A program made the translations under genes and the position numbers. The notes under the pieces were generated by a model. It was not told the origin of the DNA. It saw nothing but the letters and a program-made list of their open reading frames with translations, and did no database searches. From contig JAEWPS010000011.1 of NCBI GenBank assembly GCA_023460515.1, positions 8,023 through 48,022 on the forward strand: 40,000 nucleotides of DNA. Direction: 5' to 3'. Each line of letters starts with the position of its first letter. Position 1 is the first letter of the stretch. The DNA is from Bacillota bacterium. Its GTDB lineage: Bacteria > Bacillota > Clostridia > TANB77 > CAG-465. This document shows, piece by piece, positions 4,501-27,202 of this stretch.

Positions 4501-5010
4501 TTAAACAAAACTTAATTCATTATATTTTGTAATGGAAGCTTTTAATTCCTCTAGCGTCTTATTAATAAAATAATAACCTGAATAATGCGCTCCCCATATC
4601 CAGCAATCATCTGAGAATTCAATAATAAATGATTGAGTAATAGATTTAACTGATGGCAAAGAAGCCCCTAAATATCTTCCGCTATAATCTACACGTTGAT
4701 ATTGAAATCTGATATCCTCAACATCTTGAAAATAAATTTTTTCTTTGATTGTCACATTGTCAAATATATAGGTTCTATTTACTTTATCCAATTCATAAGA
4801 TTCTTCAGTTAACTGAAATTGACTCCTGTTTTTGAATGTAATTAAGGGCATAAGTTCATTTAATACAATATACTTTTCAAAATTACACATTGCATCTTTA
4901 ATTTTTAAATACGTTATTTGAGGTTCAATAGATTTGGTAAATAATATCCGAAGCTTATCTGCATTTCCCGCATCATTTAACCATTTAAATAAATCCACTC
5001 TTTCTTCCAT
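4501..5010 (-). CDS. Hypothetical protein, 169 aa, no family recognised
   Basis: Clean ORF with RBS AAGGAGG 8 nt upstream. It has its own promoter and terminator. No TM segment or signal peptide is evident. Confidence 0.7.
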   Translation of the reverse strand: MEERVDLFKWLNDAGNADKLRILFTKSIEPQITYLKIKDAMCNFEKYIVLNELMPLITFKNRSQFQLTEESYELDKVNRTYIFDNVTIKEKIYFQDVEDIRFQYQRVDYSGRYLGASLPSVKSITQSFIIEFSDDCWIWGAHYSGYYFINKTLEELKASITKYNELSFV

Positions 5011-5088: not shown

Positions 5089-5199
5089 TGCCTAATATGC
5101 ATAATTATGTAAATTAAAATTGAATAATTAAAATGTTTGATCTTATAAACTCGATTAATAACAAATTTGAAACGTTTTTTCTTACTTACGCATTCTCCT

Positions 5200-7339: not shown

Positions 7340-7411
7340 AAAAAATCCTCCTTTTCGCTATTATTATAATTGTGTTATGTGAAATTCCAATGTTTAAAAT
7401 GTGAAAATTAG

Positions 7412-7449
7412 ATGAATAAAGAGTCATAAATTTGAATATTTATGACTCC
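7412..7449 (-). terminator. Rho-independent terminator
   Basis: GAGTCATAAAT (7421-7431) pairs with ATTTATGACTC (7438-7448). TTTATTCATC follows on the minus strand. Confidence 0.6.
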
Positions 7450-7477
7450 TTCATTATAATTTTAATTTTTTATGTAA

Positions 7478-7651
7478 TTAACTATTTAATTTTCTTGTTT
7501 TAACGGCTGGTATTATCATAAGTAGTATTGCAATAATTAGTATTGGTATATATATGTAGTCTGCTATTTCCACTATAAATCTATCAATAATTGACGTAAT
7601 TACATAAATTATTATACCTATAGAGGTTAAAACATTTACCTTTTCTTTCAT
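7478..7651 (-). CDS. Small hydrophobic protein, 57 aa (not in ORF track)
   Basis: Own translation: MKEKVNVLTSIGIIIYVITSIIDRFIVEIADYIYIPILIIAILLMIIPAVKTRKLNS, with two predicted TM helices. RBS GAGGGA lies 6 nt upstream. It sits 21 nt after the ABC-F stop and before the terminator at 7412-7449. Confidence 0.4.
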   Translation of the reverse strand: MKEKVNVLTSIGIIIYVITSIIDRFIVEIADYIYIPILIIAILLMIIPAVKTRKLNS

Positions 7652-7672
7652 AAGACTTCCCTCATCTCATTT

Positions 7673-13806: not shown

Positions 13807-15042
13807 TTATAATATATAAAGTGCTACACGAAATGATAGACTACCATTTGCTGAATTATCCGTCCTACCAACACGATAAGACGCTGGATTGGTACTACCT
13901 GAATTGTTATAATAACCACCCCTATCAAAGCAAACTGATATCATATACATTTCATTTGTCCATTCTGTTGTATTTCCCGCTAAATCATATATATTATTTG
14001 CTTTCCAATATTCGCTAAATCCTGTAACTTGTAACGTTCCATTACCTGTAACATTTGCAGGTGATGTTGAATCTTTATAATTTCCCCATGATGAGGAATT
14101 AGTTGATACATTTATGCTAGAATTTTCTAGCCATTTCATGGTTGTATCCCATTGTGTTCCTGTTACAAGTCCACTTTTAACTTCTGCTGTTGTATACATT
14201 GATTCAGCTGCCACTTTTGCATTACTGTAATTTATATTATTCCAAACCGTTGCAAGTTTTTTACTAACTAATATATTAGTATCTTGTTTACCCGCCTCAT
14301 ATCTTGCTATATAGAAACCTCCATATTTAGATATTTGGTCTATTTCACTTATTATTCCCGTTGGTAATGTATCATCTATTGATGGTGTATATGAAAATCC
14401 TTTTGTACACCATTTTAAATAAGTTACATTTGTTCCATCTACTGGTACCCATACAAATTGGTTTCCTTTATCATCTTCTATTACTAATCCTTTATTCCAA
14501 TCTGTTGGCCATATTGCACCATCATTTATTGCTTTAAATCCTTTTGGTATTAATGGGTTATTATATGCCACAACTAACCCGTTTACAGTTGAGTTAACTT
14601 GTGCTATAGTATTTACCCCTAACCCTTGTTGCAATGGAAGAGTTGTACCTTCATTTGATAGTCTCATTTCTTCAAACCAATCTTTTTCTTTTTGAACTGT
14701 TCCAACATAAACTAAAGTACCTTTTTGTATTTCAAATTTTTTTCCATCTTCTAGTGATATACTAGTTATATATTGCTTAATTGTATTGGTCACGTCTCCA
14801 CCATTCCAAATACTTTTGTTAAATGTATTTGGATTAAATGTATTATCTTGTAGATACATATTTGATATAGCAATTGCAAGTTCTGAATTATATTCACTTA
14901 TATTAGACTTAAAAACTGCTATATTTGCTTGTTCTATAGAATTATTATTTATAAAATTTAGCATTACAGCACCTGCTACTATTATTATAACTATTATTGT
15001 TATAACTAATAATATTAATGATATACCTTGATTTCTTTTCAA
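13807..15042 (-). CDS. Prepilin-like-leader protein with C-terminal FGE-sulfatase (SUMF1)-fold domain, 411 aa
   Basis: TTG start with GGAGGA 8 nt upstream. N-terminus is MKRNQG-ISLILLVITIIVIIIVAGA. C-terminal motifs are GNQFVWVPV, GFYIARYEA, GTQWD, NIYDLAGNTTEWTNE, RGGYY and SFRVALY. It is a paralogue of the 815- and 782-aa proteins. Confidence 0.85.
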   Translation of the reverse strand: MKRNQGISLILLVITIIVIIIVAGAVMLNFINNNSIEQANIAVFKSNISEYNSELAIAISNMYLQDNTFNPNTFNKSIWNGGDVTNTIKQYITSISLEDGKKFEIQKGTLVYVGTVQKEKDWFEEMRLSNEGTTLPLQQGLGVNTIAQVNSTVNGLVVAYNNPLIPKGFKAINDGAIWPTDWNKGLVIEDDKGNQFVWVPVDGTNVTYLKWCTKGFSYTPSIDDTLPTGIISEIDQISKYGGFYIARYEAGKQDTNILVSKKLATVWNNINYSNAKVAAESMYTTAEVKSGLVTGTQWDTTMKWLENSSINVSTNSSSWGNYKDSTSPANVTGNGTLQVTGFSEYWKANNIYDLAGNTTEWTNEMYMISVCFDRGGYYNNSGSTNPASYRVGRTDNSANGSLSFRVALYIL

Positions 15043-15109
15043 TTAAAGTTCCTCCAATTCTTCAATTATATGAAAATTATAATATTCATATAATTGAACT
15101 AATTTAAAA

Positions 15110-15138
15110 ATTATATAATATATTTATTTTTTTGTCAA
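15110..15138 (-). promoter_or_regulatory. Putative promoter of the 411-aa gene
   Basis: Minus strand: TTGACA (15138-15133), 17 nt, TATAAT (15115-15110). Confidence 0.55.
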
Positions 15139-15241
15139 CGAATTAATAGAAAGTTTTACATTTTTGTATAATTTTGTAATATTTAGTTGATTATTTAGAT
15201 TAATATAATTTTCACTAAATTTGAAATCTATAATAATTTTA

Positions 15242-15272
15242 TAAAAAAATAGCCCAGATTTTTTCAATCTGA
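15242..15272 (-). terminator. Weak terminator after the 131-aa gene
   Basis: CAGATT/AATCTG stem (15255-15260 / 15266-15271), followed on the minus strand by GGCTATTTTTTT. Confidence 0.4.
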
Positions 15273-15283
15273 ACCATTTAAAA

Positions 15284-15679
15284 TTACATTCCCAGTTTGT
15301 ACTTTTCAATAAACCTCTTTGTGCCCATACCTTTTGCATTTGAACGATCAATTGCATTCCAAATTGCTCTTGATACGCTAAGCTCTGTAACAGAATAAAT
15401 TTCTGCAATTGCAGGATAAACATCCTTAGACAAAGAGTATTTTTCTTTATTCTTCAATTTCTCATATACAATATTAATTGCACTAACAAGGTAATTAAAC
15501 CCACTGCCATTAAGGGAAATTTTGTTATTTAAAAGATATTTTCTTATATCAGGATTATCTAACTTATTCTTTTTAATTTTCCTTTTATTATTTGTTATAA
15601 TATAATCAGCTTCTTTAATGTTAGTTGTTATCCGAATTAATACATCTTCACCAATAAATACATTTACTACTTTTTTCAT
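15284..15679 (-). CDS. Receiver-less Spo0A C-terminal-domain-like protein, 131 aa (divergent)
   Basis: The C-terminal half (GFNYLVSAINIVYE...LSKDVYPAIAEIYSVTELSVSRAIWNAIDRS) is collinear with the Spo0A DNA-binding domain (IKGY.YL..AI......L.....LYP.IA......S.VERAIRHAIE). The N-terminal ~35 aa are shared with the 177-aa and 53-aa neighbours. Confidence 0.7.
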   Translation of the reverse strand: MKKVVNVFIGEDVLIRITTNIKEADYIITNNKRKIKKNKLDNPDIRKYLLNNKISLNGSGFNYLVSAINIVYEKLKNKEKYSLSKDVYPAIAEIYSVTELSVSRAIWNAIDRSNAKGMGTKRFIEKYKLGM

Positions 15680-15736
15680 TAGAATCTTCCTTTCACAAAA
15701 ATTATTTTATGATAATTTCGATTATTCAATGATAAT

Positions 15737-15765
15737 ATTATATATCAATTTACATAAAAAGTCAA
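15737..15765 (-). promoter_or_regulatory. Putative promoter of the 131-aa gene
   Basis: Minus strand: TTGACT (15765-15760), 17 nt, TATAAT (15742-15737). Confidence 0.55.
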
Positions 15766-15781
15766 TCCAAATTTAAAATAT

Positions 15782-15816
15782 ACAGAAAAACAACCTCACA
15801 AATTTGTAAGGTTGTT
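15782..15816 (-). terminator. Rho-independent terminator after the 177-aa gene
   Basis: AACAACCT (15789-15796) pairs with AGGTTGTT (15809-15816). TTTCTGTA follows on the minus strand. Confidence 0.6.
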
Positions 15817-15831
15817 CATGTTTATGTATTT

Positions 15832-16365
15832 TTATTTTTTAAGTCTAAATTCCTCAGCTATGCCAGAAAGAAATTCAGAATTTGTAGACTTCGTTTTACC
15901 GGAAGCAAGCGGCAAGACAAAAAGTCTATTTAACACCTCTTTATTTCCTCTGTTAAATGATATTTCAATACCGTGCCTTATTGCACGCTCTACTTTATTT
16001 GGAGTTGTTTTGAATATTTCTGAGACTTTTGGATAAAGATCTTTAGTAACCGAGTTAATTATATCCGGGTCGTTTATAAGAATTTTTATTGCCTCAATTG
16101 TATATCTATACCCTTTTATGTTCGGCAATATTCCAATGCTTATAAGCAGTTCAGAAATATCAATTTCAAGCTGATTTGATTTTTCTACCTTTGGATTATT
16201 TGAAGACGTAGTCTCCAGTTTTTTAACAGTTTCTTTAAAAGCAGATGTTGAGGTTATTGTACCATCACCATTTATTATAAAATCAGCCTTTGTCGGATCA
16301 GTTGTTATCCGAACAGCTACCTCTTCGCTTTCAAAATATACACTAATAGTTTTAATTTTTTCCAT
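15832..16365 (-). CDS. Receiver-less Spo0A C-terminal-domain protein, 177 aa
   Basis: Residues ~65-177 (IGILPNIKGYRYTIEAIKILINDPDIINSVTKDLYPKVSEIFKTTPNKVERAIRHGIEISFNRGN...KTKSTNSEFLSGIAEEFRL) match the Spo0A C-terminal DNA-binding domain nearly motif for motif, including ERAIRH and PTNSEFI-like. The N-terminus is only ~40 aa, not a CheY-like receiver. Confidence 0.87.
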   Translation of the reverse strand: MEKIKTISVYFESEEVAVRITTDPTKADFIINGDGTITSTSAFKETVKKLETTSSNNPKVEKSNQLEIDISELLISIGILPNIKGYRYTIEAIKILINDPDIINSVTKDLYPKVSEIFKTTPNKVERAIRHGIEISFNRGNKEVLNRLFVLPLASGKTKSTNSEFLSGIAEEFRLKK

Positions 16366-16419
16366 AATTTTTCTCTCCTTTTAAATTTTTAATTAGAAAT
16401 AAAATAATATACAAATAAT

Positions 16420-16448
16420 ATTATACTATAACACAGCAAAAAAGTCAA
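16420..16448 (-). promoter_or_regulatory. Putative promoter of the 177-aa gene
   Basis: Minus strand: TTGACT (16448-16443), 17 nt, TATAAT (16425-16420). Confidence 0.6.
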
Positions 16449-16461
16449 TACTTATGTAAAT
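16441..16461 (-). repeat. 21-nt exact direct repeat, copy 1 (covers the -35 box and upstream flank)
   Basis: AAAGTCAATACTTATGTAAAT is identical to 16742-16762. Confidence 0.9.
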
Positions 16462-16501
16462 CTAAGTGTTTTTATAACCTATTTTAGCTGTATCTCACCA
16501 T

Positions 16502-16663
16502 TCATTTTGCAAATATATAATAATCTGTTGGATCATTTGGAAAAATTGCCATTATAGTTCCATTGCCTTTTATTATTATGTCCGCCTTTTCTAAATTATT
16601 TCCTATTTTAATACTTAGATTATCACTTTCAAAATATACTTCTACTAATTTACATTTTTTCAT
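16502..16663 (-). CDS. 53-aa protein made only of the N-terminal module of the Spo0A_C-like paralogues (not in ORF track)
   Basis: Own translation: MKKCKLVEVYFESDNLSIKIGNNLEKADIIIKGNGTIMAIFPNDPTDYYIFAK. It aligns with MEKIKTISVYFESEEVAVRITTDPTKADFIINGDGTITS of the 177-aa protein. It has RBS AAGGAGAG and its own promoter. Confidence 0.55.
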   Translation of the reverse strand: MKKCKLVEVYFESDNLSIKIGNNLEKADIIIKGNGTIMAIFPNDPTDYYIFAK

Positions 16664-16720
16664 AATCTATATCTCTCCTTTTTAAATTATTACATAAGGA
16701 TTAATTTTGTTTAGACGTTA

Positions 16721-16749
16721 ATTATATATTAATTTATTACTAAAGTCAA
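16721..16749 (-). promoter_or_regulatory. Putative promoter of the 53-aa ORF
   Basis: Minus strand: TTGACT (16749-16744), 17 nt, TATAAT (16726-16721). Confidence 0.55.
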
Positions 16750-16762
16750 TACTTATGTAAAT
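16742..16762 (-). repeat. 21-nt exact direct repeat, copy 2
   Basis: AAAGTCAATACTTATGTAAAT is identical to 16441-16461. Confidence 0.9.
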
Positions 16763-16780
16763 TAAAATGTGCATGAGCTA

Positions 16781-16820
16781 TTAAAAAATAAAAGGTATGT
16801 TAAAAAACTAACATACCTTT
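16781..16820 (-). terminator. Rho-independent terminator after the HIT gene
   Basis: AAAGGTATGTT (16791-16801) pairs with AACATACCTTT (16810-16820). TATTTTTTAA follows on the minus strand. Confidence 0.7.
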
Positions 16821-16842
16821 TATTATTATATTTCTATATAAA

Positions 16843-17193
16843 CTATTCGTGAACTATTTTTTCACCAAGATGTCTACCACCTAATAAGTGAAAATGTATA
16901 TGATTAACTACTTGACCACCATCTTCACCGCAATTGCAAATAACTCTATATCCAGATTTATCTACACCAGATAATTTTGCAACTTCTTTTATAGCAAGAT
17001 ATACTTGTTTTATATATTCACTATTATCTACAGTTACATCATTCATACATGAAATATGTAACTTAGGAATTACTAAAACATGAACTGGAGCTACTGGATG
17101 TATATCTTTAAAAGCTAAAACATATTCATTTTCATATACTTTTTCAGAACCTACTTCACCCTTTATTATTTTACAAAACAAACAATTATCCAT
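16843..17193 (-). CDS. HIT family nucleotide hydrolase (HinT-like)
   Basis: N-terminal CLFCKII and the histidine triad NHIHFHLLGG. It lies 8 nt downstream of alaS. Confidence 0.9.
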   Translation of the reverse strand: MDNCLFCKIIKGEVGSEKVYENEYVLAFKDIHPVAPVHVLVIPKLHISCMNDVTVDNSEYIKQVYLAIKEVAKLSGVDKSGYRVICNCGEDGGQVVNHIHFHLLGGRHLGEKIVHE

Positions 17194-17201
17194 GATTCCT
17201 C

Positions 17202-18962
17202 CTATTTAACAAATACTGCTTTTATTCTTCTTACACCTGATGATACTGCTTCTTCTTTTAAAATTTTAATATGCTCTAGTTTAGAAGTATTATCTACATG
17301 TGGTCCACCACATATTTCTTTTGAGAAACCTTCTATTGTATATACTTTTACACTCTCACCATATTTACTATCGAATACGCCTTTTGCACCATATTTTCTA
17401 GCTTCATCAAGTAACATCTCTTGAAAACTCACTGGTAATTTCTTATCTATTTGTTCATTAACCATGTTTTCTACTTGATCTAAAATTTCTCTAGTTACTT
17501 TTTCAGGATGTGAAAAATCAAATCTAATTCTCTCTGCAGTTATATTTGAACCTTTTTGTGATACATGATCTCCTAGTATTCTTTGTAATGATTCAAGTAT
17601 TAAATGAGCAGCTGTGTGGTATTTTGTAGTTTCTTCACTATGATCAGCAAGACCACCTTTAAATATTCCTTCTGCTCCTTCACGTGATTTTGCTTGATGT
17701 TCTTCATAACATATTTTAAATCCATCCATATCAATAGAAAAACCATTTTCTTTAGCAAGCTCAGCAGTTACTTCTGGTGGAAATCCATATGTATCATATA
17801 ATCTAAATACCGCAGTACCTTCAATTAAGTTTGTATTTTCATCTTTTAATTTATTTGTCAATTTAGTAAATTCTTTTTCACCACTTAATAATGTGTTCAT
17901 AAATCTATTTTTTTCTTTTATTATTTCTTCTAATATAACATCTTTATTTGTTACTAATTCTGGATACATATCTTTTAAACTACTTATAAGAGTTTCAATA
18001 ACCTCATTTATTTTATCTGGATTAACACCAATTTTTCTCATATGCCTTATTGTTCTACGTATTAATCTTCTTAAGATATAACCTTGACCAATATTACTTG
18101 GAGTCACAAAGTCACATATAAGTAGTGCTGAAGCTCTTAAATGGTCCGCAATTATTCTAAGTGAAGCATCTTCTGGATTTTCACTAATTTCTCTTACCTT
18201 AGATATTATTGGCATAAACAATTCAGTTTCAAAAATATGATTTTTTCCTTGCATTAAAAATGTAATTCTTTCAAGACCCATTCCTGTATCAACATTTTTT
18301 TGAGATAATGGAACGAAACTTCCATCTTCTTTTTTGTTATATTCCATAAAAACGTTATTCCAAATTTCAATATATTTTCCACAATCACATGAAGGATTAC
18401 AATCATCTGAGCATTTTGGAACACCAGTATCTAAAAATATTTCTGTATCTGGTCCACATGGCCCAGTTTGACCTGCTGGTCCCCACCAATTATCTTTTTT
18501 TCCAAAAAAGTATATTCTAGATTTATCTATTCCACACTCTTCCCAAATTTTTGCAGACACATCATCTTTAGGAGCATCATTATCTCCAGCAAAACATGTA
18601 ACAGATATTTTGTAAGCAGGAATATTTAATTCTTTTGTTAAAAATTCAAAACTATATTTTATTGAATCTTCTTTAAAGTAATCTCCAAGTGACCAATTTC
18701 CTAACATTTCAAAAAATGTTAAATGTCTATTGTCACCTACTTCATCTATATCATCAGTTCTTAAACATTTTTGAAAATCTACAAGTCTTTTACCCTCAGG
18801 ATGTGACTCACCCACAAGATATGGAACAAGAGGATGCATACCAGCTGTTGTAAATAAAACAGTTGGATCGTTTTCTGGCACTAGCTTTGCTCCAGATATT
18901 ACCTTGTGATTTTTGCTTTCAAAAAATTTCAAATATTTATTTCTTATTTCTATTGCTTTCAT
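17202..18962 (-). CDS. alaS: Alanine--tRNA ligase, short form (586 aa, ends after the editing domain)
   Basis: Class II AlaRS N-terminus (IRNKYLKFFESKNH...LFTTAGM...FFEMLGNWSLGDYFK). Editing-domain motifs HTAAHLI and CGGPHV. The protein ends at ...SSGVRRIKAVFVK, with no C-Ala extension. Confidence 0.85.
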   Translation of the reverse strand: MKAIEIRNKYLKFFESKNHKVISGAKLVPENDPTVLFTTAGMHPLVPYLVGESHPEGKRLVDFQKCLRTDDIDEVGDNRHLTFFEMLGNWSLGDYFKEDSIKYSFEFLTKELNIPAYKISVTCFAGDNDAPKDDVSAKIWEECGIDKSRIYFFGKKDNWWGPAGQTGPCGPDTEIFLDTGVPKCSDDCNPSCDCGKYIEIWNNVFMEYNKKEDGSFVPLSQKNVDTGMGLERITFLMQGKNHIFETELFMPIISKVREISENPEDASLRIIADHLRASALLICDFVTPSNIGQGYILRRLIRRTIRHMRKIGVNPDKINEVIETLISSLKDMYPELVTNKDVILEEIIKEKNRFMNTLLSGEKEFTKLTNKLKDENTNLIEGTAVFRLYDTYGFPPEVTAELAKENGFSIDMDGFKICYEEHQAKSREGAEGIFKGGLADHSEETTKYHTAAHLILESLQRILGDHVSQKGSNITAERIRFDFSHPEKVTREILDQVENMVNEQIDKKLPVSFQEMLLDEARKYGAKGVFDSKYGESVKVYTIEGFSKEICGGPHVDNTSKLEHIKILKEEAVSSGVRRIKAVFVK

Positions 18963-22269: not shown

Positions 22270-24717
22270 CTAAAAAATATATAATGCTGGTCTAAATGAT
22301 ATATTATCTTGAGACGTTGTAGCAGCGTAATTAAGACGATTTGAAGCGCAATATGTTGAAGATACATCAGTATAACTTCCGCCTCTTAACATATAGTAAC
22401 CAGCTGTATACATTTCATTTGTCCATTCCCATGTGTTACCAGCTAAATCATATATATTTTTTGCTTTCCAATAGTCACTAAATCCTGATATTTGCAAAGT
22501 TCCAAATCCAACTATATTAGCTGGTGATATTGAATTTGAATAGTTACCCCAGTTTCCGCTATTTGTTATATTAATTCCTGAATTTTGTATCCATTTCATT
22601 AATGAATCCCATTGTGTTCCAGTTACCAAATTAGTTATAACTTTAGTTGGGTCATACCCGTAATTTGCCGCCATATTTTGTGAATATGTTTTAGAATCTG
22701 CATAATTTATGAAGTTAAATAAATATCCTGTATACGTTGTTCCTCTAACCCAGCTACTAGATATTTTGTTAGCAGATTTTTTACTTGCAACTCTTATATT
22801 TCCACTATTATAATCAAACATTGCTTCATATCTTGCAATATAAAATCCTTTATATTTAGTTATTTGGTTTGCCTCATTAGTTATTGCTGCCGGTAATGTA
22901 TCATTTGATATATTTACATTATTATATGCTACTCCAGTTGTGCACCATTTTGCATATGGAACACTAGTTCCATCAACTGGTACCCAAACAAACTGATTAC
23001 CACTTGTATCTTGAATAACTAATCCATTATTCCAATCTGCTGAAACATTATTCCAATTTGCTTCCGCAGTATTTATGGCTACAAAACCTGCAGGTATTAC
23101 TGGATTATTGTACGTTGGCATTTTACCAGTAATTGTTGAATTTTGAGATAATGCAACTCCTGGATTTGTTTCTGTTCCTGGTGCATTTGCTTTAATATAA
23201 TTTAGGTTAACACTAACTATTCTAGTTTCTGTTATTGTATTATCATAGTTTACTGCAACCATTTTTATAAATGCATTGTCCGCAGTAAAATTTGTAAAAG
23301 GAGTGTTTTGCTTAGTTGTTATTCCATTTGTTGTAGTATTTAATGTATATACTTGTTCATCTGTAAAAGTTACTCCATCTATACTTTTAGAAAAAGTTAC
23401 AGATTTAATACCATTAACGCTATACATTTTTGCGGTTAATTGAACTGATTCTTTTGTAGAATTATCTAATGTATAACCAATATATAATCTTGGAGCTATT
23501 TCTTGATTATATAAGTTAACATTACCAGCTTTATCTATTACAGCTATCTTTATGCTTCTTATATTTTTAGCTGCATTAATTGTTGTTGTTAAATCACTTG
23601 TAACTTTAGCACTTTTTGCTTTACTTAGCATATATGCAGTATCAAAATCAGTAATCCCATTATAATAATTTTCAATTGTTGCGTTATCTGTATATTTAGT
23701 TAAATATTCATATCTAACTTCTTTTATTCCACTTTCTGAACTAGATAAATTTATTTTAACTGTATTGATTGATGAATATGATGAAATCGTTGCACTTGTT
23801 ATTGTTGGAAGAGTTTTACTAAAGTTAGATAAATCTATCCTTACTTTTCCAATTACATCTGAACCTTTGTATTTTAATATGTCTACATACCTGTCAATTA
23901 ATGGTTTTGTACCTAGTTCTATATAGTTTACTTCTGCTAGTGTAAGTGTTGGTACTTTTATTGTTTCACTATCACTTACTATTGATGAAAGTAAGTTAAA
24001 ACCAAATGTATTTTTTCCAACTGTTGTTGTTATTAGTCTATTTGTATCTCCACTTACAGACATATATAAAAGTTCATCTGCAGCCATTTCTGCTTCAATG
24101 CTTACACCCATTTTGTTAGCCCATCCGTTAATTTTAGTTAATTTTATACCACCAGATGTCGTAACAACAGTTGAAGATTTATCTGTTTGCTCTCCATATA
24201 TTTGAACTACATTAGATATTTTTGATGTTATTGAAAAATATATTTGTCCCTTAGCCTGTAATCCATATGGGTAATATGCATGCATAGATGGATACGCAAC
24301 AACAAATATATCTCCTGCACCTAAATCACCGTTTCCATATGGTATTTTAGTAACATTTATTTTAGCAAGATCTATTTTATAAAATTGTGAATTTAAATCA
24401 TTGTTATCGGTAATTTCTTCTAATAATACATCTTGAGATCTTGCAATTGCAAGCAACTCATCTTTAGTAAGTGCAGTAGAGTCTGCTACTAAAGGCATAA
24501 CATTATTTGTTATATAGTAACTTTCTGTAGAATCTTGTATTTCAGCTAAATTCTTAGAGAAAGTTGTTATGTTTGCATCATCTATAGCACTTAAAGTAGA
24601 AACTGTAACAGTTGCAACAAGTATTAATGCGACAATTATAGTTATTATTAAAACTATTAAAGAAATACCTTTCTTATTAGTAGTTTTGTATAAATATTTT
24701 TCATTTCCGTTATTCAT
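22270..24717 (-). CDS. Large prepilin-like-leader protein with beta-rich stalk and C-terminal FGE-sulfatase (SUMF1)-fold domain, 815 aa
   Basis: N-terminus is ...TTNKKG-ISLIVLIITIIVALILVATV. The middle region is alignable with the 782-aa neighbour. C-terminal motifs are GNQFVWVPV, GFYIARYEA, GTQWD, NIYDLAGNTWEWTNE, RGGSY and SFRPALY. RBS AGGTGA is present. Confidence 0.85.
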   Translation of the reverse strand: MNNGNEKYLYKTTNKKGISLIVLIITIIVALILVATVTVSTLSAIDDANITTFSKNLAEIQDSTESYYITNNVMPLVADSTALTKDELLAIARSQDVLLEEITDNNDLNSQFYKIDLAKINVTKIPYGNGDLGAGDIFVVAYPSMHAYYPYGLQAKGQIYFSITSKISNVVQIYGEQTDKSSTVVTTSGGIKLTKINGWANKMGVSIEAEMAADELLYMSVSGDTNRLITTTVGKNTFGFNLLSSIVSDSETIKVPTLTLAEVNYIELGTKPLIDRYVDILKYKGSDVIGKVRIDLSNFSKTLPTITSATISSYSSINTVKINLSSSESGIKEVRYEYLTKYTDNATIENYYNGITDFDTAYMLSKAKSAKVTSDLTTTINAAKNIRSIKIAVIDKAGNVNLYNQEIAPRLYIGYTLDNSTKESVQLTAKMYSVNGIKSVTFSKSIDGVTFTDEQVYTLNTTTNGITTKQNTPFTNFTADNAFIKMVAVNYDNTITETRIVSVNLNYIKANAPGTETNPGVALSQNSTITGKMPTYNNPVIPAGFVAINTAEANWNNVSADWNNGLVIQDTSGNQFVWVPVDGTSVPYAKWCTTGVAYNNVNISNDTLPAAITNEANQITKYKGFYIARYEAMFDYNSGNIRVASKKSANKISSSWVRGTTYTGYLFNFINYADSKTYSQNMAANYGYDPTKVITNLVTGTQWDSLMKWIQNSGINITNSGNWGNYSNSISPANIVGFGTLQISGFSDYWKAKNIYDLAGNTWEWTNEMYTAGYYMLRGGSYTDVSSTYCASNRLNYAATTSQDNISFRPALYIF

Positions 24718-24853: not shown

Positions 24854-27202
24854 TTATTTTAAATATAAAGCACATCTAAAACCTAGATTAGCATTTTTTG
24901 TACCTATTGACGTCGATCTACGATATGAAGAAGGATAATTTTTTCCAGTACTGCCATAAGAACCACCACGATTTATATAATTATTATTTAATGCTTCCAT
25001 TGTCCATTCATATTCGTTACCTGCCATATCATAAATATTGTTAAATTTATATGATGAATTTGATCCTGTTAATTCTAGTTTATTGCTATAGTTACCATAT
25101 CCAGTAGAGTTTATAACATATGTACTATTTACCTCTTTTATAAACTCAAGCGCTGCATCCCATTGTACACCATATATAAGATTTGATGATATATCCGTTG
25201 TATTATACATACTTCTTGCAACTTTAACAGCCCCATCTCCTGGATTTGTTATCTCTTTTGTTTCACCCCATCTTATATAATTCCATGTTCCACGTCCTGC
25301 TTTAGATACTGGTTTTATAGAACCATCTGAGATTGTTTTATGATCATTTTTTGTAGGAACAGTTATACTATCTATGCCAGCTTCATATCTAGCAATATAA
25401 AATCCTCCATTATCTCTTACGCTCTTATATATCTTATCTAATTCCGTTGCATTTGATAAACCATCCCAACTAGCTTCTACACACGTAGATATTTTTGAGC
25501 CTTTATTGTATTCAACTCTTACAAATTTACTAAAATCTTTTACTGGTATCCACACAAATTCATTTTTACTAATATTATCTACTATTACTAATCCTGTACT
25601 TACCTCTTGCTCTCCAATTAAAGTTGATTTACTAAATCCATATGGAATCTTTGGACTATACCACGTTGATGCTGGTTTATAATCTTCTAAGCTAGTGTTT
25701 ATTATTCTTGTCTCTGTCAAAGAACCGTCATAATTTACTGCTGAAATTTTTATATATGCAAAATTTTGAGATATATTTTTATATGGTAAACATTGTATAT
25801 ATGTTGTACCATTTATCGTTGTATTCAATGTATATATTTGCTCGTCAGTAAAATTTATTCCATCTAAACTCTTAGAAAAGCTTATAGTTTTAACACCATT
25901 AGCACTAAATACCTTTGCTGTTAATTGTAATGATTCTTTTATGTAACTGTCTATACTATATCCTATATATAATTTAGGAGCTATTTCTTGATTATATAAA
26001 TTAACATTATTTGCTTTATCTATTAATGCTACTTTTATACTTTGCACATTTTTTGGCACTTTAATTATAGTCGCTGCATTGTTAGTAATATTAGATTTTT
26101 TTCCATTACTTATCATATAATTTGAATCAAAATCTGTAACATTATCATAATACCTTTCTATTGTTCCATTATTTGTGTATTTTGTTAAATATTCATATCT
26201 TACTTCTCTAATACCGCCATCAGTGATATTTAAAGATAAATCCACTTGGTTTGATGAAGAATTCGATGAAATAGTAGCTTTTTTTATGCTTGGAGGAATT
26301 TTATTGAAATTGGACAAATCTATTCTTGTTTTATCTACAATGTCATTATTCTTATATTTCAATATATCTACGTATCTTTCAGAAACTGGCTTAGTACCAA
26401 GATCTATATAGTTGGCTTCATTCAAAGTAAGATCTGGAATTTTTATATTCTCTACTCCGCCAACTATTGAAGAAAGAGAATTAAATTTAAATGTATTTTT
26501 ACCTATACTTGTTTCAATAAGTCTATTGGTAGATCCACTCACTGACATAAATAAGGTTTCATTTTGGTCCATGTTTACTTCTATATTTACATCCATTTTG
26601 TTTACCCAACCACTTGCTTGAGTAACATTTATCTTTTCTAACAAAGGTAAACCATCTACCGGATTAGATAGTTCCTCTTGATTCAATTTTGTAACGCTTG
26701 TTATCTTATCTGTTATTGAAAAATATGTATTATTATTTGTACTAAATCCATATGGATAATATACATTCATAGAAGGATATGAAATAACAAATATATCATT
26801 TTCACCATACTTTTTTAATCCATATGGCGTGTTTGTAATATTTATTTTGTTAAGATCTATAGTATAAAACTGTGAGTTTAAATCATTGTTTTTTGTAATT
26901 TCTTCTACTAATATATCTGAAAATCTTGAGATAGATAAAAACTCATCTTTATTCATTAACTCTGAACCATTTAATGAAGGTATTACGTTATTACTTATAT
27001 AATAACTCTCAATAGAATCTTGTACTTTATTTAAATCTTTTGCAAATGTGGTTAATTTTGCAGTATCTATAGCGTTAGAAGCTGAAACAAATATAGTTGT
27101 TGCTAATATTGACAAAACAACCATAGATACTATCAAAATAACTAGTGATATTCCACTTTTTAAATTAATCATGTGCAAATTATCTTTAACCTTATTAATC
27201 AT
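24854..27202 (-). CDS. Large prepilin-like-leader protein with beta-rich stalk and divergent C-terminal FGE-sulfatase-fold domain, 782 aa
   Basis: N-terminus is ...INLKSG-ISLVILIVSMVVLSILATT. C-terminal motifs are NEFVWIPV, GGFYIARYEAG, GVQWD, NIYDMAGNEYEWT, RGGSY and LGFRCALY. It is a tandem paralogue of the 815-aa gene. Confidence 0.85.
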   Translation of the reverse strand: MINKVKDNLHMINLKSGISLVILIVSMVVLSILATTIFVSASNAIDTAKLTTFAKDLNKVQDSIESYYISNNVIPSLNGSELMNKDEFLSISRFSDILVEEITKNNDLNSQFYTIDLNKINITNTPYGLKKYGENDIFVISYPSMNVYYPYGFSTNNNTYFSITDKITSVTKLNQEELSNPVDGLPLLEKINVTQASGWVNKMDVNIEVNMDQNETLFMSVSGSTNRLIETSIGKNTFKFNSLSSIVGGVENIKIPDLTLNEANYIDLGTKPVSERYVDILKYKNNDIVDKTRIDLSNFNKIPPSIKKATISSNSSSNQVDLSLNITDGGIREVRYEYLTKYTNNGTIERYYDNVTDFDSNYMISNGKKSNITNNAATIIKVPKNVQSIKVALIDKANNVNLYNQEIAPKLYIGYSIDSYIKESLQLTAKVFSANGVKTISFSKSLDGINFTDEQIYTLNTTINGTTYIQCLPYKNISQNFAYIKISAVNYDGSLTETRIINTSLEDYKPASTWYSPKIPYGFSKSTLIGEQEVSTGLVIVDNISKNEFVWIPVKDFSKFVRVEYNKGSKISTCVEASWDGLSNATELDKIYKSVRDNGGFYIARYEAGIDSITVPTKNDHKTISDGSIKPVSKAGRGTWNYIRWGETKEITNPGDGAVKVARSMYNTTDISSNLIYGVQWDAALEFIKEVNSTYVINSTGYGNYSNKLELTGSNSSYKFNNIYDMAGNEYEWTMEALNNNYINRGGSYGSTGKNYPSSYRRSTSIGTKNANLGFRCALYLK

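Follow-up and report, generated by a model that had tools for sequence, protein, structure and literature searches.

Spo0A serves as the textbook example of how a phospho-receiver restrains an effector domain, and the usual chromosomal position of spo0A is next to spoIVB. To our knowledge, bare Spo0A effector domains had so far been reported from phages alone, in which they presumably serve to hijack sporulation. Here, we describe a cluster of three minus-strand genes found in a 40,000-nucleotide stretch (hereafter, the window) of contig JAEWPS010000011.1 from the Clostridia assembly GCA_023460515.1, which encode proteins of 53, 177, and 131 amino acids (aa) at 16502–16663, 15832–16365, and 15284–15679, respectively. 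We propose, with middling confidence, that these genes represent a family of transcription factors with Spo0A effector domains, in which the receiver has been replaced by a module and a linker and whose members operate as a partner circuit. The family appears to be confined to a single uncultured Clostridia clade of low GC content, in which a ~40-aa beta-rich N-terminal module (N-module) and a flexible linker take the place of the ~120-aa receiver. We regard it as a chromosomal, vertically inherited family that arose when the receiver was swapped for an undescribed module and that was then duplicated into three forms.

Receiver-less Spo0A homologues carried by human-gut phages were described by Schwartz et al. 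(mBio 2023; PMC10294663), who propose that the truncated phage Spo0A acts without host signals; according to work cited there (Grimsley 1994, Ireton 1993), the Spo0A C-domain binds DNA on its own and activates transcription without phosphorylation. Published Firmicutes surveys of Spo0A are limited to counts of full-length paralogues (10.1101/2022.02.25.481979; PMC6136694), and our literature search found no paper on a chromosomal Spo0A_C family in which an alternative module occupies the N-terminus. The cluster proteins resemble the phage truncated Spo0A (phrog_24603) in being receiver-less effector-domain proteins that are predicted to be independent of the phosphorelay. The phage proteins found here, however, are bare C-domains of ~105–140 aa with neither an N-module nor a long linker, whereas the cluster genes are chromosomal, syntenic, lineage-specific, and module-bearing. 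In our survey of phage Spo0A_C (13 GenBank phage records and 12 IMG/VR loci), all of the IMG/VR loci except L022, which encodes a full-length receiver-bearing Spo0A, are bare C-domains, and the module was found neither in the 12 IMG/VR loci, using a module hidden Markov model (HMM), nor in the 13 GenBank phage matches. Of the novelty assumed in the initial annotation of the window, receiver-less Spo0A as such is already published for gut phages (PMC10294663), and what is new here is the N-module and the chromosomal family.

Spo0A effector domains behind a shared N-terminal module

The 177-aa protein (long form) consists of the N-module (residues 1–40, encoded at 16246–16365), a linker (residues 41–66), and a complete Spo0A_C domain (residues 67–177), which matches Pfam PF08769 with E = 4.3e-33 (113.9 bits; model positions 1–103 of 104; gathering threshold, 25 bits). 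The 131-aa protein (short form) matches the same model with E = 1.2e-9 (38.5 bits) over model positions 3–70 only, and no Pfam domain was matched by the 53-aa protein, which contains only the N-module and a conserved C-terminal tail (YYIFAK). NCBIfam TIGR02875 (Spo0A) scored 128.1 bits against the 177-aa protein, covering model positions 127–258 only, and 30.3 bits against the 131-aa protein, both of which are below the equivalog cutoff of 200 bits. Because TIGR02875 aligns only from position 127, the 177-aa protein is an effector domain without a receiver, and a Pfam search for the receiver (PF00072) gave no match in any of the three proteins. This architecture is firmly established, and since there is no CheY-like receiver and the N-module has no match among known domains or folds, phosphorelay control via a receiver is impossible, as the initial annotation had stated. 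Its descriptions of three minus-strand open reading frames with related N-terminal modules, of a Spo0A_C domain in the 177-aa protein and a divergent version in the 131-aa protein, and of the module as novel were likewise borne out, with one correction: MEKIKTISVYFES... (MEKIKTISV...) starts the 177-aa protein and MKKCKLVEVYFES... (MKKCKLVEV...) starts the 53-aa protein, i.e. the reverse of the order in which the two had been listed. In the annotation of the source metagenome-assembled genome (MAG), these genes are labelled 'spo0A', and such labels on module genes could be miscounted as sporulation capacity in MAGs.

The AlphaFold2 (AF2) model of the 177-aa protein has a predicted local distance difference test score (pLDDT) of 81, with a low-confidence linker (residues 43–61) and a moderately confident N-module. 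Its C-domain shows the six-helix Spo0A fold and superposes on 1LQ1 and 1FC3 with E = 2e-8, target template-modelling (TM) scores of 0.86–0.92, and root mean square deviations of 1.6–2.6 Å. Compared with canonical Spo0A, the C-domain is homologous over its full length (about 41–54% identity; TM score about 0.9). The motifs VERAIRH, which we take to be the recognition helix in 1LQ1, and KPTNSEF are invariant in an alignment of 24 canonical Spo0A proteins; the 177-aa protein reads N-K-V-E-R-A-I-R-H where the canonical sequence is S-R-V-E-R-A-I-R-H and has KSTNSEF for KPTNSEF. Most long forms retain both motifs, and a few carry single substitutions. Unlike canonical Spo0A, the 177-aa protein lacks the aromatic and GYT positions of EVAW...GYT, the cluster proteins have no phospho-acceptor Asp, their genes lie between hit and addA rather than beside spoIVB, and there are two or three paralogues along with a module-only gene. 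With a complete Spo0A_C fold and VERAIRH kept, the long form probably binds DNA and can contact RNA polymerase without phosphorylation.

All short forms share the helix motif V-(S/D/E/A)-R-A-(I/M)-(W/C)-N (VSRAIWN in the 131-aa protein), a 2-aa insertion, and a deletion of ~21 residues. The deleted residues correspond to the canonical RGNxDxLNxLFGYT... stretch, presumably the sigma-A-activating region defined by genetics in B. subtilis. In a C-domain tree (custom neighbour-joining with 100 bootstraps), the short forms make up a clade with 100/100 support that is nested among the long forms. Given the altered helix motif and the missing sigma-A-activating segment, the short form probably either binds DNA without activating or pairs, as a partner, with the long form via the shared module. 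Two extra paralogues are present in L002 (8708–9782): one, of 179 aa, has a short extension N-terminal to the module, and the other is a 142-aa Spo0A_C protein without the module, in which the helix motif is altered to VEREIRK.

As judged by sequence comparison, all three proteins start with a homologous module of ~40 aa. In BLASTP searches, the 53-aa protein aligned with the 177-aa protein over residues 1–39 (E = 3e-11), and the alignment of the 131-aa protein with the 177-aa protein (E = 5e-13) begins within the module; the 53- and 131-aa proteins gave no direct BLASTP alignment and are linked via the long forms and the profile only. When run on six-frame translations of 10 loci, the module HMM recovered all family genes and nothing else, including short forms absent from its training set. 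By its sequence pattern, the module consists of four short beta-strands, with A-D invariant and a D-G turn nearly so; in the 131-aa protein, the last (fourth) strand, G-D-G-T-I, is missing and a basic stretch is found instead.

The module had no match in Pfam or NCBIfam and no sequence-profile match in the PDB, and Foldseek searches against the PDB and BFVD returned nothing with E < 1. A degraded receiver was considered as an origin of the module, as some BLAST alignments reach the receiver motif YF..KP, and was rejected because hhalign of the module against the 24 canonical Spo0A proteins gave a probability of 0.3% and TIGR02875 is silent in this region; the module is thus not a recognisable receiver remnant. 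Its beta-beta-turn-beta-beta order presumably resembles the swapped-hairpin N-domain of AbrB, SpoVT, and MazE, a candidate that was also rejected, with no PF04014-type Pfam match (E <= 1) and no PDB-profile or Foldseek match.

An exhaustive HMMER search with the module profile, covering 1.84 billion representative proteins, yielded 35 matches. In all but two of the single-stretch matches, the module is located at the N-terminus or <=10 residues from it and is followed by Spo0A_C in proteins of 137–206 aa or stands alone in a 53-aa protein; the two exceptions are single stretches within large proteins and have lower-ranking E-values. The other matches are multi-stretch matches in repeat-containing proteins, most of which are giant and two of which are small low-complexity repeats; we judged these to reflect a generic strand-turn-strand resemblance and rejected them as module homologues. 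In four of them (P0132–P0134 and P0146), profile positions 14–38 match 5–15 repeated stretches in proteins of up to 3,007 aa, the repeat type in P0146 being ...VRLQVIVTVND...DNPTVADIAVNETGVIWYD.... At the level of sequence searches, it is firmly established that the module is exclusive to the Spo0A_C family, which comprises ~20 clusters at 50% identity and is thus rare. A pattern scan for the short form confirmed a single locus among 185,579 GTDB species, and a scan of metagenomes detected one contig. Among the other receiver-less Spo0A matches inspected, most look like canonical fragments, e.g. P0016, which starts inside the receiver, and P0093 and P0046 are apparently true stand-alone Spo0A_C forms of a different kind.

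The conservation of the module, including its invariant A-D and D-G positions, could also indicate a sensor or gate, in which the binding of a ligand or partner holds Spo0A_C inactive until release; the proteins would then be one-component regulators and the 53-aa protein a decoy for the same signal. The flexible linker to the C-domain, as with the inhibitory receiver in Spo0A, is consistent with this explanation, and so are the stand-alone phage versions, which need no N-module and thus suggest that DNA binding as such is independent of the module. A beta-meander of ~40 residues is, however, very small for a ligand pocket, and Pfam, Foldseek, and PDB-profile searches revealed no similarity to known sensor domains, so that we consider a sensor function rather unlikely.

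Selection, gene order, and transcription units

All three genes are under purifying selection: in comparison with the closest genome, L007 (the GTDB species representative, MAG 'Clostridia bacterium L_E1_T20_A_bin.143'), the ratios of nonsynonymous to synonymous substitution rates (dN/dS) are 0.11, 0.11, and 0.29 for the 53-, 177-, and 131-aa genes, respectively. The orthologue of the 53-aa gene was identified at the same position in L006 and L007. Each of the three genes has its own 11/12 sigma-70-type promoter and a strong ribosome-binding site, and from these signals and the dN/dS values the genes are judged to be real and functional. Terminators were identified on the minus strand 3' of the 177-aa gene (15788–15817; palindromic stem CCTTACAAATTTGT.AGG) and 3' of the 131-aa gene (15247–15279), and a further one is present 3' of hit; a search 3' of the 53-aa gene found none. 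On the basis of the separate promoters and two terminators, the three genes are predicted to be separate transcription units. The stem of the 177-aa terminator is a near-perfect palindrome (CCTTACAAATTTGTAAGG) that is kept in L004, L005, L006, and L019, a degree of conservation beyond the needs of a terminator. An Rfam search of 15000–17000 returned nothing credible.

The cluster had initially been regarded as part of an islet inserted between addA and hit/alaS, an idea that the genomic context contradicts. The window represents housekeeping chromosome, containing dnaK-grpE-hrcA, addA, alaS, hit, tsaE/B, disA, radA, and carD; its GC content is uniform, and neither mobility nor phage genes were found among its genes. 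The order alaS-hit-[53]-long-short-...-addA is found in L002/L003, L004, L005, L006, L007, L008, and L019, and an eighth lineage (L020/L021) contains only the long form, near addA. This synteny is firmly established, and the conserved order in related lineages indicates that the cluster is a stable inherited chromosomal feature of the clade, not an islet; the only variable gene sits between the short form and addA.

The same data bear on the possibility that the genes are relics without host function, i.e. decaying spo0A duplicates or a truncated spo0A of prophage origin, domesticated or remnant. Phages do carry receiver-less Spo0A_C genes (PMC10294663), and part of the domain has been lost from the short form. 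A relic is, however, hard to reconcile with dN/dS values of 0.11–0.29, with the consensus promoter, ribosome-binding site, and conserved upstream element possessed by every gene, or with a chromosomal position fixed in eight lineages, and the window contains no phage genes, nor do the 12 IMG/VR loci and 13 GenBank phage matches contain the module. This explanation is largely refuted, and we consider it highly improbable.

In the L020/L021 lineage, a transposase of the IS3 family adjoins the long-form gene (L020, 860–1621; L021, 1129–2444), and a 522-aa pilin-leader protein whose C-terminal part differs is encoded between the long-form gene/transposase and addA. A canonical Spo0A of the lineage studied here was sought among cluster names and contig samples, which yielded only the spo0A of another lineage. 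In that lineage of Clostridia (L009–L018), two full-length spo0A genes with receiver and Spo0A_C domains are arranged in tandem (277 and 271 aa), and the pair in L009 (6001–7760) follows, at a distance of a few kb, a Peptidase_S55 (spoIVB-like) gene. The alanyl-tRNA synthetase gene of the window (17202–18962, minus strand) encodes a short, 586-aa type of the enzyme (NCBIfam NF002436, 894 bits), which lacks the C-terminal region found in the usual enzyme of ~870 aa.

A conserved promoter element and the proposed circuit

The promoter of the 53-aa gene (16721–16765, minus strand) contains TTAATTTACATAA (16753–16765) followed directly by a -35 box (TTGACT), a 17-nt spacer, and a -10 box (TATAAT), and that of the 177-aa gene (16420–16461, minus strand) contains ATTTACATAA (16452–16461) followed by the same two boxes with the same spacing. 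In the promoter of the 131-aa gene (15737–15765, minus strand), an inverted element, TTATGTAAAT, is located in the spacer between TTGACT and TATAAT and corresponds to ATTTACATAA on the plus strand at 15748–15757. These arrangements recur across the family: TTAATTTACATAA(G) abuts the -35 box, 77–98 nt before the ATG, in all long and 53-aa genes (11/11), and the inverted TTATGTAAAT lies between the -35 and -10 boxes in the short genes that have their own promoter (5/5). In total, 18 copies of TTTACATAA were identified in 107 kb (8.3 ± 2.7 expected), 16 of which are in family promoters at fixed offsets and another of which precedes a 169-aa gene (see below). Promoter alignments contain invariant blocks amid diverged intergenic DNA, the flanking spacer columns being unconserved, and coding identity among the same lineages is only 45–65%. 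The conservation of this promoter element, with a position and orientation specific to each gene class, is firmly established.

The forward element at the -35 box points to activation and the one in the spacer to repression, both by the same factor, i.e. one factor would activate the long and 53-aa genes and repress the short gene via TTAATTTACATAA. Most economically, this factor would be a member of the family, resulting in an autoregulatory circuit. Within such a circuit, the N-module may supply the self-association that the phosphorylated receiver gives in Spo0A, although dimerisation via the module is a guess. The short form could act as an antagonist of the long form, and the 53-aa protein might titrate either partner, just as SinI titrates SinR in B. 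subtilis. The likeness to SinR/SinI lies in the combination of a DNA-binding regulator with a small adjacent protein consisting of the shared module only and is a resemblance, not homology; the folds and sequences are unrelated, and here three partners (long, short, and module-only) carry the module. If the module mediates pairing, the cluster would represent a natural rewiring of a two-component output into a partner-switch circuit and would provide a compact new interaction domain together with a defined operator.

Several observations weigh against the proposed explanation. In the C-domain tree, the separation of the whole family from canonical Spo0A is unsupported (bootstrap 6/100). The module is modelled by AF2 with moderate pLDDT values of 66–89 (81.6 for the 53-aa protein as a whole), and DSSP assigns few strands to it, a result that would, as a guess from the models, fit strands that pair only in an oligomer. 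Between the promoter element and the 0A box, TGTCGAA, only 4 of 7 positions (TGT..A) are identical, and a search of the cluster for perfect 0A boxes found none; given this 4/7 match despite the canonical helix motif of the long forms, the binder of the element could be a different protein. The window contains two perfect 0A boxes, both in coding sequence and no more than expected by chance. A more far-reaching version of the partner circuit, in which the module is a new interaction domain replacing phosphorylation as the switch and an autoregulated activator/antagonist/titrator circuit on the TTAATTTACATAA operator would govern, in this clade and without kinase input, a portion of the Spo0A regulon or perhaps the whole of it, cell-surface pilin-leader genes included, is regarded as rather unlikely.

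An extra copy of TTAATTTACATAA (a TTTTAATTTACATAA element) is present on the minus strand at 5105–5117, 103 nt upstream of a 169-aa gene of an unassigned family (4501–5010, minus strand), which is a candidate extra target of the element; the 169-aa protein had no match in Pfam, NCBIfam, or PHROG. In the 333-nt gap between the genes for an ABC ATPase and an FtsX-type permease (7340–7672), two opposed copies of TTACATAA were found (7470 and 7600). A conserved block in the 5' untranslated region (UTR), TAATAATTTAAAAGGAGAG, directly precedes the start codons of all long and 53-aa genes in L002–L020 and is located at about 16668–16690 and 16370–16390 in the window, and short-form genes contain AAAATAATTTTT at the equivalent place. 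This 5' UTR block may serve as a second operator or function in translation.

Pilin-leader genes next to the cluster

The variable neighbour of the cluster in the window is a 411-aa pilin-leader/FGE-like gene (13807–15042, minus strand) with its own 12/12 promoter (15110–15138). It is one of three pilin-leader/FGE-sulfatase-like paralogues encoded within 13 kb (13807–15042, 22270–24717, and 24854–27202, all on the minus strand). Among the seven lineages that could be scored (L002 was left out, as its contig ends there), a pilin-leader gene lies 3' of the cluster in four, namely window/L007, L005, L008, and L020, and in L004, L006, and L019 there is no pilin-leader gene and addA directly follows the short form.

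The initial annotation had proposed the cluster proteins as candidate regulators of this surface-protein family, and a corresponding explanation is that the cluster proteins are dedicated regulators of the adjacent pilin-leader/FGE-fold genes. Beyond the adjacency in four lineages, it may draw on several promoter features: the sole intergenic perfect 0A box in 112 kb precedes the -35 box of the L005 pilin gene by 6 nt, tandem near-0A boxes (TGTCGTG/AGTCGAA) lie beside the -35 box of the pilin operon in L008, and the promoter of the 782-aa FGE-like gene of the window contains AATTACATAAATAGTATTGAT (AATTACATAA...TATTGAT), which resembles the family element. The three lineages without a pilin-leader gene argue against dedicated regulation, as do the single GTDB locus of the short form and the breadth of the pilin/FGE family, which with 5,682 matching proteins (E <= 1e-5) is far wider than the module family with its ~20 clusters. 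Moreover, 0A-like boxes are unconserved upstream of the 411-aa gene of the window itself, and canonical Spo0A could equally use such boxes. We therefore consider dedicated regulation doubtful, and control of pilin genes by the cluster, for which the sequence-based evidence is weak, is presented as a lead, not a finding. More than 20 paralogues of the pilin/FGE family occur in one NCBI MAG (PHD15_ tags); the family is hugely expanded in uncultured Clostridia, and some of its members are named PilE or PulG by JGI.

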